A stretch of DNA of 64,000 nt from Candidatus Tumulicola sp. (GTDB lineage Bacteria; Vulcanimicrobiota; Vulcanimicrobiia; Eremiobacterales; Eremiobacteraceae), in assembly GCA_035601835.1 (NCBI GenBank), contig DATNNM010000018.1, positions 133,890 to 197,889 of the forward strand, in the 5' to 3' direction. Numbering within the stretch: position 1 is the stretch's first letter; the number at the start of each line of letters is the position of its first letter. The position numbers and the translations under genes are program-made. Under the pieces are notes generated by a model. That model was not told the DNA's origin. It searched no databases and saw only the letters and a program-made list of their open reading frames with translations. Of the stretch, positions 60,368 through 64,000 are shown piece by piece.

Positions 60368-60553
60368 GGTCACCTTGCCCAAGAGGCGATTTGGCCGGAA
60401 TCGAGGGTTGTAGCATCACAGGAAGGGCGCCCAGATTAACCGAGATAAGTGCTGACCAAATGCTGACCAACAGTCGGATACGGGGGCGAATTCAATAGCA
60501 CTCAACAACACGGGGGCTGCCGCAATCACTCGAAAAGTGTCTTCTTCCGCTCT

Positions 60554-60598
60554 TTGACACTGTAGGGGTCAGAGGTTCGAGACCTCTCGCGCCCACCA
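60554..60598 (+). repeat. 45-bp copy of the tRNA-Val(GAC) 3' part (att repeat)
   Basis: Identical by eye to 54966..55010 (ttgacactgtaggggtcagaggttcgagacctctcgcgcccacca). Confidence 0.85.
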
Positions 60599-60900
60599 TC
60601 AGAAACCATGATGCCGCGGACCTCCGCGGCTTTTTCATCCGCTCCAGCACCCCTATCACTACCCGAAAATGCTGACAGATGCTGACCGAATTTGGACCGC
60701 ATAGCGGTATCCAACTTGAGCGCCGCGCTCGTTTCTAGCGCCGGCACCACGTGACTGTAAACGTCGAGCGTCATGCGCGTTGTACTGTGGCCGAGGCGAT
60801 CTGCTACTACTTTGGGATGAATGCCCTCGCTCAGCATTTCTGTCGCTGCGGTGTGGCGAAGCGAATGTGGGCCGATACTGCCAATGCCAACCCTTACAGC
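60599..60900 (-). pseudogene. Tyrosine recombinase C-terminal remnant (copy 2, longer)
   Basis: GPHSLRHTAATEMLSEGIHPKVVADRLGHSTTRMTLDVYSH (box II plus catalytic Tyr). No N-terminal domain. Confidence 0.75.
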
Positions 60901-60903
60901 TAG

Positions 60904-63900
60904 AACGGGCTCAATCGCTTGACGAATATCTCGTACTACCCGCTCGGTGACCCGCGCCAAGATCTCCCAAACATCATCTCTATCCCGTCCGTCGACACCC
61001 CGGGCAACACGGAAACGATAACGGACACGTTCGGCTCTAACGGACTACTCGCATCGCAAGCGACTCAGGGTTATATCGCGGGTTCCGCCACCGCCTACAC
61101 GACCGGATTTTCCTACGATACCAAGGGTCGGCTTCAGCAGATCACGGGTCCCCGGACCGACGTGGTGCAGCACACGACTGTCGCCTATTACCCAGACAGC
61201 GACACCGACATGGCGCGCCGCGGTCAACCCCAAACAATCACCGATGCACTCAGCCATGTCATCACGCTTGCAGCCGATGCAGCTCCTAACAATACGTACA
61301 GCATTTTTGGGGATCCGCTGAGTGTGGCGGATCCCAACGGCGTCATCACCGACTTGAGCTATGATGCGCGCGGGCGAACGCTTTCCTCAACGATCAAAGG
61401 GGTGACAGGCGATCCGACACCGCTGGCAACCTCCTACGTCTATGACGCCGCGGGCAGGCTCACCAAAATCACACGACCGCTGCTCAACGGGTTGAGCCTG
61501 ACGTACGACACGAGTAATCGGCTGACCGACGTGATACGGTTCACCGCCAGCACGAATCTCCAGGAGGAGCAAATCGTGCTTGGCTACGACGTCACGAGTC
61601 AGTTGACTTCCCAACTCGCTCAAGCATGCACGACGCCAGCGGTTTCGTGCAGCGCGTGGAGTACAAAGCAGCAGGAGACCGTCCAGTATGACAGCTACGG
61701 GCGCGTAAGAGAAATTGACCACCCTTTCCCGAGCGGATCGAAGATCTTGTACGGCTACGATTTGGCCGGGAACCTAAACTCAATCCAAGACGAGAATCAC
61801 AGCACGGCGAACTCGACATACAACTATGATTTTGCCAACCGCCTCACCAGCGTCGTGCAAACGTTGGCAGGTGCGCCGGGCAATCAAATCACGACTAGCT
61901 TCGGGTACGACCTGCACGACAATCTGAACTCGGTTATCGACCCCAACAGCAACCAGACCACGTACGCCTTCGACGACTTTGATCGGGTAAGACAGCAGAC
62001 GTCGCCTGTGAGCGGGGTCAGCAGCTACGCCTACGACCCCGACGACAACCTCCTGACGTTCGCAGACGCCAACGGAGCGATGACCACGCGCACTTTCGAT
62101 GCGCTGGACCGCGTGCTTTCTGCGATGTCTGTGCGCAGCGGTTTCACGACAGAGACCGTGAATTGGGCCTACGACGACGCCACCAACGGCAACTTCGGCA
62201 TCGGGCGCCTCAGGAACATCACCGACCCCTCGGGATCGACAACCTACACCTACGACAGGCGCGGTCTGCTCAAGACCGAAGCGCCCACGATCTTGGGGAA
62301 TGCGTATTCGCAGGCCTATGCGTACGACGGCAACGCCAACCGTACGAGCGTCACCTATCCGGACTCCTCAGTGGTTAATTATACCTTTGATTTCGCGGAC
62401 CGGCCACTATCGGCGACCCTGGGAAGCACGACCTTTGTGTCATCGGCGAGCTACGCGCCGTTTGGGCCGCTGACCAGTCTTTCGTTCGGGAATACAAAAA
62501 CGCAGACGCTCAGCTACGATCTCCGCTATCGCCCGACCGAGAACAAATTGTGTTGCGGGAAACACGGAGTAGCGCTCGCAGACTACACATATGCCGAGGA
62601 CGGGGTTGGCAACATCACGGGCATCACCGACACCGTGAGCACGGGATTCAACCGGACGTTTGGCTATGACGACCTCAATCGCTTGATTACCGCCAATACA
62701 GGCGCTTCGCTGTGGGTCACGGGCTCATACACTTATGACTCCATGGGCAACATGAAGACCTTGGGGCTGGGCGGTTCTCGGACTGCGTCATTCAGCTACT
62801 CAGGAACACTTCCAAGACTCACGTCCGTGACGGAGAACGGCACGCCGCGATCTGTGGCCTACGACGCGGCGGGCAACGAGAGCAACGTGGGCACGGCCAC
62901 GTACGGCTACGGCACGCGCAACTTGCTCGAATCGGGCGACACGCTCACCTACACCTACGATGGCTGGGGGCGGCGTCTTGTGACCTCTGGCAGTCAGGGC
63001 ACCCGCTACTCGTTCTTTAGTCCTGCCACGGCGCTGCTCTCGGAATCGGCGCTGACCATGTCCGGAAGACCTGCTATCGCTTACAAATACATTTGGTTCG
63101 CGGGCAGACCCATCGCGCAAGTGGACGGCGCGGGCACGCACTGGGCCTTTGCCGATCACTTGGGAACGCCGGAGATTCAAACCAATACCAGCGGCACGAT
63201 CACTTACCAAGCAGAGTACGAGCCGTACGGAAGAATCTTTTCGTTGCGCTCGAGCGACGTGCACCAGCCGCTTCGACTGCCGGGCCAGGTGGCGGAGCAA
63301 TTCGACACTGGGGCCAATGGCGCGACGGAGCGTTCATACAACAATTTCCGCTGGTATCGGCCGGGCTGGGGAAGGTATTCTGAGGCGGATCCGCTTGGGT
63401 TGGTCGCTGGAGCGAACGGATATCCTTACGTTTTGGATAATCCCGGCGGGAGAATCGACCCTCTGGGGTTGCACCCCGGACCGAGTATTACGGCGGTGGG
63501 CTATTTCCAGTATGCCCTCGATCCCGTCTACAGGCAGCAGTACAACGACTTGCTACTTGGGGCGGGTATTGTTGGGCTAAATGTGGTTCCCGTCGTTGGT
63601 GAGGTCTTGGATGTCGTTGCCGCGGCCCGGATCGCCGGCCTGGGCGCAGCACTCCTTCGTTTGGAACAATCGGCGCAAGAGGAAGAACCTGGTCCGCTGT
63701 GTCCGAACTCTCCAATTGTAATCGGCGAAAACATGAATCGCGTCCGTGCGGCCGCCGCCGAATTAGGAGCTAGGACCTACTCGGGATTCCCAAACGCAGA
63801 GGGTCTAGCCGGTTCAAACCTTGCGGAGGCGCAACTTTCCCATAACGCCGAGTGGCTTCTTGGAGAACTTCGGGGAGGAAGCACTGTAATAGACATCGGG

Positions 63901-64000
63901 CCGGACATCCGCGGGTTAAATTACCCGGGAATAACCAGTGACAGTTACAGTTTGGAGCTGCAGCTCCTCGAGCAGTTTCCCAACACGCTAATGTTTGGGG
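60904..64000 (+). CDS. Rhs/YD-repeat polymorphic toxin cassette, 5'-truncated, open to the window end, distinct C-terminal domain
   Basis: Frame with codons starting at 60904, 60907 and so on, open from the TAG at 60901 to 64000. The track lists no stop-bounded ORF in this frame, and a hand translation of 63472..64000 found no stop. Collinear with copy 1 from about 55902. Core ends at GRIDPLGL (63471). Confidence 0.7.

Follow-up and report, generated by a model that had tools for sequence, protein, structure and literature searches.

The question raised by the last gene in this stretch of the Candidatus Tumulicola sp. genome is what the end of its product does, and whether the gene is expressed. 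The stretch of 64,000 nucleotides that we analysed (the window) spans C18:133890-197889, C18 being contig DATNNM010000018.1 in a genome of 18 contigs, 2.57 Mb in length and 97.9% complete. It ends within an Rhs gene, Rhs2, the second of an array, whose product carries a C-terminal tip that we call tip 2. An earlier note, made from the letters of the window, had described this tip as an unassigned toxin domain behind a hydrophobic segment resembling the pre-toxin TG (PT-TG) module. We consider it likely that tip 2 serves an Rhs polymorphic toxin as its exchangeable C-terminal toxin module, and that the gene overlapping its stop codon is the cognate immunity gene.

Reading frame and layout of tip 2

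In the frame 1 translation of the window, Rhs2 is a 1027-codon open reading frame (ORF) at 60919-63999 that is still open at the window edge, and the translation of 63400-64000 reproduced the tip peptide quoted in the earlier note letter for letter. On the genome contig, the stop codon was found 4 codons beyond the window end (…NTLMFGVKYP, then the stop), and the whole ORF is intact over 1031 codons; therefore, almost nothing of tip 2 is missing. The claim that the window end cuts the tip was correct in that the frame is open at 64000, but merely 4 codons and the stop lie outside. A stop directly after 64000, which the note had named as a sign against its own proposal, does exist in form, yet it is the natural end of the domain and no truncation. 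The closest tip 2 homologues finish within a few residues of the same end point.

Rhs2 has both the repeats and the core that mark an Rhs/YD polymorphic toxin. A Pfam search gave PF05593 (RHS_repeat) at 1.4e-39 in 9 stretches, and NCBIfam gave the RHS-associated core (TIGR03696, 50.9 bits, cut-off 32.5) at residues 767-851. The last DPLGL (…GRIDPLGL, followed by HPGP), which is the self-cleavage motif, lies at residue 851 (window 63457-63471); as it ends at 63471, tip 2 starts at 63472. Behind this DPxGL boundary the tip is unrelated to those of the other copies, a further mark of the class. Neither tip 1 nor tip 3 resembled tip 2 in sequence (E>0.6), and the three tips are mutually unrelated, while the Rhs cores are 84-88% identical, which agrees with the earlier statement that tip 2 shares nothing with tip 1. 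Tip 1 is a DUF4157/eCIS_core HExxH domain with a lipoprotein partner, and tip 3 is HEVTH metallopeptidase-like.

The 180 residues of tip 2 (63472-64011) fall into four parts, namely a leader, a hydrophobic segment, a disordered linker rich in acidic residues and Pro, and an alpha/beta core of about 100 residues. No homology was found for the leader (HPGPSITAVGYFQYALDPVYRQQ), and a word-indexed homologue search with full Rhs2 returned, for the tip region, only the query itself.

The core family, its partner gene and its putative activity

The core belongs to a large family. An exhaustive phmmer search of 1.84 billion protein cluster representatives (clusters at 50% identity) gave 141 matches at E<=1e-3 and 13 at E<=1e-10, covering query residues ~78-170, and the best two (5.9e-20 and 2.0e-19) were 51-53% identical to the query. 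With 141 matches at E<=1e-3, the similarity of the core is therefore far beyond chance. In a profile re-search, nearly all of these proteins, whose lengths run from 63 to 4135 amino acids (aa), had no more than about 10 residues between the end of the domain and their C-terminus. Partner domains among 145 members include RHS (9/145) and PT-HINT (7/145); others are a TcB-like SpvB/FG-GAP/TcdB-mid/RHS protein, a 4135-aa Big_7/RHS protein and a Peptidase_C39/RHS protein. The family also occurs in orphan fragments and in orphan arrays beside EndoU, ParE and PIN genes. In the HINT-linked members, 1-20 residues of toxin sequence precede the VIGE strand (e.g. …LLVHND, then CPIIIGENM), and this short stretch fixes the N-terminal boundary of the core.

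Curated libraries are blank on this core. No Pfam model matched it in the query and none recurred in the 145 homologues at E<=0.01; NCBIfam and PHROGs gave no match. The description of the tip as an unassigned C-terminal toxin domain held, the core standing at the C-terminus of RHS, PT-HINT and TcB-like proteins. Sequences of the Protein Data Bank (PDB) held no relative of the core, with either a single sequence or a profile (E<=10, chance matches aside), and tblastn of the core against plasmid and phage collections found no match. Sources naming proteins of the family call them all 'hypothetical'. Neither a full-text search with motif strings nor the toxin-discovery papers covered yielded a match to the toxin or the immunity family. 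None of 60 related genomes, from the family and class of this organism, has the domain.

We further found a candidate partner gene. The ATG of a 167-aa ORF overlaps the Rhs2 TGA (ATGA), which fits the earlier expectation of an immunity gene beyond 64000, and a homologue of this ORF follows the homologous toxin in another phylum. That locus (L003), in a metagenome-assembled genome of Candidatus Changshengia, phylum Dormibacterota, is the sole one in the genome collection with a close toxin homologue (50% identity). There, the toxin ends an RHS protein, and a 159-aa ORF overlapping its stop codon is 29% identical to the 167-aa ORF over the full length (E 4e-19). At six further loci, from distant subfamilies, an ORF of 138-170 aa directly follows the toxin, and these ORFs are mutually related (E 1e-14 to 1e-3). 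By position and by its homologue, the 167-aa ORF appears to be the directly downstream cognate immunity gene that marks Rhs/YD polymorphic toxins. As judged by these sequence comparisons, the candidate co-varies with the toxin across phyla.

No immunity candidate has a signal peptide, lipobox or hydrophobic helix in its sequence; in the absence of a signal peptide, a cytoplasmic target is to be expected. The AlphaFold2 (AF2) model of the 167-aa candidate reached a predicted local distance difference test score (pLDDT) of 87.5 and a predicted template modelling score (pTM) of 0.84, and consists of a helix, a four-stranded meander and helices. This model had no Foldseek neighbour in the PDB, the sequence matched no Pfam family, and a word-indexed homologue search with the protein returned only itself.

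Conserved positions of the core, which include a set of polar residues, are the following: Gly-Glu closing strand 1 (vIGE), Met-x-Arg-Val in helix 1, Asn-x-x-Trp in helix 2, a Gly before strand 3 and Asp-Ile-Gly-x-Asp after it, and Ser-x-x-Tyr-x-[Met/Leu]-Glu in helix 3. The family alignments contain no conserved His or Cys. An AF2 model from an 83-sequence alignment (pLDDT 77.4, pTM 0.68) has the topology strand-helix-strand-helix-strand-helix-strand, with four strands and three helices. The best TM-scores of this model in Foldseek, none of them significant, were about 0.43-0.44 and fell to generic Rossmann-like folds (EIIA-Man of the phosphotransferase system, nucleoside deoxyribosyltransferase, SLOG, molybdenum-cofactor carrier). 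Four acidic residues on the edge of a Rossmann-like sheet mostly serve metal-dependent phosphoryl chemistry. On account of this acidic cluster, a nuclease or phosphodiesterase is our leading guess, a tentative one that we hold at well below even chances.

Among the alternatives, the core may be a glycohydrolase that processes nucleotides or NAD, a Rossmannoid like SLOG, deoxyribosyltransferase or TIR, and no phosphodiesterase at all. Weak viral Foldseek matches lean in this direction (SLOG, nucleoside 2-deoxyribosyltransferase, molybdenum-cofactor-carrier and 'Rossmann-fold nucleotide-binding'; TM 0.41-0.44, E 0.09-1.1), as do the cytoplasmic immunity and the conserved Glu residues. However, none of the Foldseek matches is significant, hhalign gave 0.2% against LOG, and no Pfam model of this kind appeared in the 145 members at E<=0.01. 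We regard this activity as unlikely; what these two options leave over falls to something else.

It is possible, although we would rather bet against it, that the core is the first recognised member of an undescribed enzymatic toxin superfamily. Such a superfamily would have a minimal four-stranded Rossmann-like fold, an active site of E/R/N/D-G-D/S-Y-E and a biochemical activity that is new for toxins used between bacteria. Its partner would be an equally undescribed immunity fold (helix, four-stranded meander, helical bundle), and the two would occur in Bacteroidota, Dormibacterota, Eremiobacterota and actinobacteria-like lineages at the least.

Array context and the state of the cassette

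The coordinates of Rhs2, its tip and its flanks are collected in Table 1. Positions beyond the window are given on L002 (C18:190000-209999), where the L002 position equals the window position minus 56110.

Table 1. Features of the Rhs2/tip 2 unit, in window positions
Feature	Position	Strand	Basis
Tyrosine integrase C-terminal remnant, adjoining the Rhs2 start	60526..60960	-	Pfam Phage_integrase 3.2e-11
att-like copy of the tRNA-Val 3' half plus terminator, inside the integrase remnant	60543-60634		Direct repeat + hairpin
Rhs2 YD-repeat shell, 5'-truncated	60919..63471	+	RHS_repeat 1.4e-39; TIGR03696 50.9 bits; register against Rhs1
Tip leader (HPGPSITAVGYFQYALDPVYRQQ), 23 residues, first after the predicted cleavage site	63472..63540	+	Sequence alone
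Hydrophobic Gly/Ala-rich pre-toxin segment (YNDLLLGAGIVGLNVVPVVGEVLDVVAAARIAGLGAALL)	63541..63657	+	Hydropathy; PT-TG resemblance at motif level only
Acidic/Pro-rich linker (RLEQSAQEEEPGPLCPNS)	63658..63711	+	pLDDT below 50-57 in AF2 model; unconserved among homologues
Toxin core (PIVIGENMNRV … IDIGPD … SYSLE … TLMFG)	63712..64011, stop 64012-64014	+	phmmer family, AF2
Immunity candidate, 167-aa ORF	64011-64514 (L002 7901-8404)	+	ATGA overlap with Rhs2 stop; homologue in L003

The first codon of Rhs2 is a TTG, which lines up with about residue 228 of Rhs1. Pfam found RHS alone in Rhs2, which lacks both an N-terminal trafficking or plug domain and a complete shell. No full-length or longer Rhs copy exists in this 97.9%-complete genome, and every other Rhs sequence in it is partial: Rhs1 is frameshifted, and Rhs3 consists of the last ~290 core residues and tip 3. 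A 92-nucleotide direct repeat of the 3' part of tRNA-Val(gac), at L002 4433-4524 and 8639-8730, flanks Rhs2 and the immunity gene, and a terminator-like hairpin lies upstream of Rhs2 at L002 4503-4520. A scan limited to the sigma-70-type consensus found no promoter-like site in L002 4200-9000 (4.8 kb). Across the core and the immunity gene, the GC content is down to 0.50-0.54 from about 0.60.

Two readings of these data were weighed. One holds that Rhs2 is an active, expressed toxin gene starting at or near 60919. The ORF is intact over 1031 codons while Rhs1 is frameshifted, the toxin and immunity genes are translationally coupled, and gene prediction in several assemblies yielded this 1031-aa product as well. 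However, this start lies in the middle of the shell relative to Rhs1, without any trafficking or plug domain; the sole start codon is the TTG, set against an antisense integrase remnant and downstream of the terminator-like hairpin, and the 4.8 kb scanned hold no sigma-70-like site. An active gene is improbable to about the same degree as the glycohydrolase. The cassette is probably silent, because Rhs2 lacks its 5' part and trafficking domain, stands behind a terminator and against an integrase remnant, and has no promoter-like site. In our reading, Rhs2/tip 2 and the immunity gene form an orphan cassette that is kept in store and probably unexpressed here. The earlier note had missed this state of Rhs2, namely the loss of the 5' part and the probable silence.

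Exchange of such cassettes has left a trace in one protein. P0265, a 1268-aa protein from another source in the same 90% cluster as Rhs2, starts like Rhs1 (MPSLSISVAAVDANN…; compare window 55233..) and ends in tip 3 (compare L002 11676-12977). It joins the Rhs1 core to tip 3 in frame, skipping tip 1 and the whole Rhs2/tip 2 unit; the cassettes have therefore recombined, or been deleted, in related assemblies.

Several further observations concern the array and similar loci elsewhere. A fourth orphan Rhs fragment, a 409-codon open frame, lies at C15:35471-36697; its opening ~200 residues share 66% identity with the last part of the Rhs2 core, and yet another unrelated tip comes after them. The third unit of the array opens, after the second att-like repeat, with a 333-aa ORF and not with Rhs core (L002 8834-9835, window-equivalent 64944-65945); this ORF has a hydrophobic N-terminus and no Pfam match. 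On the JGI metagenome contig Ga0453977_0000089 (L004:381-1175), a signal-like N-terminus and YD repeats are joined in frame, within one 264-aa ORF, to the C-terminal catalytic portion of a tyrosine recombinase (…HLFRHTCATLML…EIYTQV), and downstream of this ORF lies an orphan toxin/immunity array with the tip 2 toxin family among its members; the Rhs-integrase junction of the window therefore has a counterpart in an unrelated contig. In Flavobacterium fontis (FQVQ01000001.1, L008:1-5401), the genes after an RHS/DUF6443 protein of >2256 aa are, in order, a 123-aa ORF, an orphan 190-aa fragment containing the tip 2 toxin domain, a 139-aa candidate for immunity and a complete tyrosine integrase, a further case of an integrase adjoining displaced tips.

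The pre-toxin segment, the proposed mechanism and known systems

The resemblance of the hydrophobic segment to PT-TG stood at the level of motifs, and failed at the level of the profile. The hidden Markov model of PT-TG, PF14449 (family cut-off 23.5 bits), matched neither the tip (E<=1), nor the isolated segment, nor anything in the whole genome (both E<=10); the segment is therefore not a formal member of PT-TG. As a control, the same search passed the cut-off in 1/14 genomes, and Bacillus subtilis is among the five where it gave a signal. By contrast, LNVVPVVGEVLDVVAAA of the query is identical at 11/17 positions to LSFVPVVGTAIDVVSAA, the centre of a PF14449-positive segment (35.8 bits) in P0134, a 2775-aa homologue bearing the same toxin core; the pairwise E was 5e-5, over 17 residues only. 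In VPVVGEVLDVVAAAR, G, D and R stand within 11 residues, and Gly, Asp and Arg within 15 residues form the best-conserved part of PT-TG according to a 2026 survey (PMC13483458). PF14449-positive members of the core family number 2 of about 146 (P0134 and one more), while look-alike modules of the form …GDY/W-x-GAGL…-P-x-x-G…D…R in P0020, P0047, P0120, P0198 and P0248 are also missed by the model.

Compared with PT-TG (Becerra Soto et al. 2026, PMC13483458), the query segment likewise lies between delivery module and toxin, and a putative Pro-x-x-Gly … Asp … Arg motif fits into about 15 residues of it. Unlike PT-TG, it has Gly-Glu in place of Thr-Gly or Gly-Thr, and it is far more hydrophobic than the loop-like PT-TG. 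On these motifs, the segment is best described as a PT-TG-like pre-toxin module at motif level only. Another pre-toxin module was seen in P0022 and P0130, which match positions 2-95 of the Ntox10 profile (PF15520), its N-terminal half, between the Rhs end and the toxin core. These matches are below the cut-off (25.5 and 20.5 against 26.8 bits), the toxin core is not involved and the query is unmatched; by profile comparison, this region is a putative pre-toxin helical module shared with Ntox10.

Because many carriers of the same core do without it (L003, HINT-linked members and orphan fragments), we place the hydrophobic segment outside the toxin domain. This bears on a second kind of toxin, a membrane-active one (pore-forming or depolarising), in which the segment would kill as in the glycine-zipper Rhs and contact-dependent inhibition toxins and the alpha/beta domain would be accessory. 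The Kyte-Doolittle 19-residue mean of YNDLLLGAGIVGLNVVPVVGEVLDVVAAARIAGLGAALL peaks at 1.92 around tip residues 36-43, which suffices for a membrane helix; the segment shows GxxxG/AxxxA-like spacing, and the weak diphtheria toxin matches reported below could be read in the same sense. The conserved set, however, consists of polar core residues, and the immunity candidates are soluble and without hydrophobic helices. Immunity to pore formers is usually provided by a membrane protein. Given that conservation of the core does not extend to the segment, and given the soluble immunity proteins, we hold pore formation to be very improbable. The matches of the segment (63541-63657) to the diphtheria toxin translocation domain were non-significant (Pfam Diphtheria_T E 0.21; PDB 7rb4 E 1.1), and this likeness, probably compositional, was rejected.

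That the C-terminal domain is a housekeeping or structural one, fused to Rhs by happenstance, can be dismissed almost outright: a few members carry it internally or at the N-terminus and no activity is known for it, but its partners are almost exclusively delivery and processing modules of polymorphic toxins, with orphan arrays by EndoU, ParE and PIN, a small conserved partner gene follows it, and its distribution is patchy, down to its absence from the 60 relatives.

Self-cleavage after DPLGL is established for Rhs proteins generally, and tip 2 would be released in this manner after delivery. The hydrophobic Gly/Ala-rich segment may help the tip to cross or engage the inner membrane of the target, and the core would then work as an enzyme in the cytoplasm. 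Its putative active site would combine the near-invariant Glu closing strand 1, the Asp-x-Gly-x-Asp closing strand 3, and the Arg, Asn and Ser/Tyr/Glu of adjacent helices. The likeliest activity would be metal-dependent hydrolysis of a substrate containing phosphate or nucleotides, either a nucleic acid or a nucleotide cofactor, and the immunity protein may block the core by direct binding. The cassette itself would be a stored tip, movable onto an expressed gene by homologous recombination in the Rhs core.

Several results weigh against this account. Foldseek of the core model against PDB and BFVD gave nothing at E<=1e-3, and neither sequence nor structure searches tie the core to an enzyme family. 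Comparison with Toprim-fold nucleases was negative (hhalign against the RecR Toprim alignment 0.5% probability, a test of low power; DxGxD in place of DxD; no Toprim Pfam match), and so was that with SLOG/LOG-like Rossmannoids, the LOG alignment test above being also of low power and the Foldseek likeness non-significant. Similarity between the ORFs of the distant subfamilies and the 167-aa protein (P0004) is weak, with their N-termini aligned in register (BLASTP E 6e-4 to 6e-3; hhalign E 5e-4 at 30% probability). We only infer a membrane role for the segment, which many carriers of the core do not have, and the silence of the cassette is read from its anatomy alone. Finally, a few actinobacteria-like members carry the domain internally or N-terminally, e.g. 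before a calpain-like protease; the domain is therefore not strictly a terminal toxin.

These last members (P0050, P0054, P0067 and P0036) form a high-GC actinobacteria-like subfamily with the domain in non-C-terminal positions. In P0050 it precedes a calpain-type cysteine protease, and in proteins of 217-362 aa of the same subfamily it is N-terminal. The use of the domain in this subfamily may differ from that in Rhs tips.

Taken as a system, tip 2 with its immunity gene and the orphan cassettes is of the standard Rhs polymorphic toxin kind. It shares with the Rhs/YD polymorphic toxins that have orphan cassettes (enterobacterial Rhs, and the Rhs effectors of the type VI secretion systems of Serratia and Pseudomonas; Zhang et al. 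2012, PMC3482391) the YD-repeat shell, the RHS core ending in DPxGL, the unrelated variable tip, the immunity gene directly downstream, the tandem displaced tips with partial core and the GC drop over the tip. It differs from them in that no copy in this genome has an N-terminal trafficking domain (PAAR, VgrG-binding or signal peptide), that tRNA-Val att-like repeats and remnants of integrases lie between the cassettes, and that the tip 2 toxin family is not among the curated ones. PT1-PT9 (Nachmias et al., bioRxiv 10.1101/2021.10.19.465003) and the W10XG-associated toxins (PMC13483458) are likewise short C-terminal domains, unannotated before, that were found by architecture and have a syntenic immunity gene. 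For PT1 and PT7, crystal structures and catalytic His residues were described (Nachmias et al.). In contrast to these DNase toxins, our family has no conserved His, and the core has no PDB sequence match at E<=10, which separates the two on the assumption that their structures are in the PDB copy searched. What departs from the standard here is that the toxin and immunity families, widely spread as they are, have no entry in any curated library and no solved structure, the comparison with other novel toxin families being one with the crystallised ones.

For this genome the finding is less remarkable, as it amounts to one stored cassette in a decayed Rhs array. The family is of wider interest. 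Tips of polymorphic toxins have been a recurrent source of new enzyme activities and of tools, among them deaminase base editors, (p)ppApp synthetases and RNA ADP-ribosyltransferases. Here, a family of 141 clusters at 50% identity, standing behind several delivery types, was missed by Pfam, NCBIfam and PDB. With a compact and confidently modelled core, candidate catalytic residues and a conserved partner gene, it is therefore a well-defined and easily testable target.

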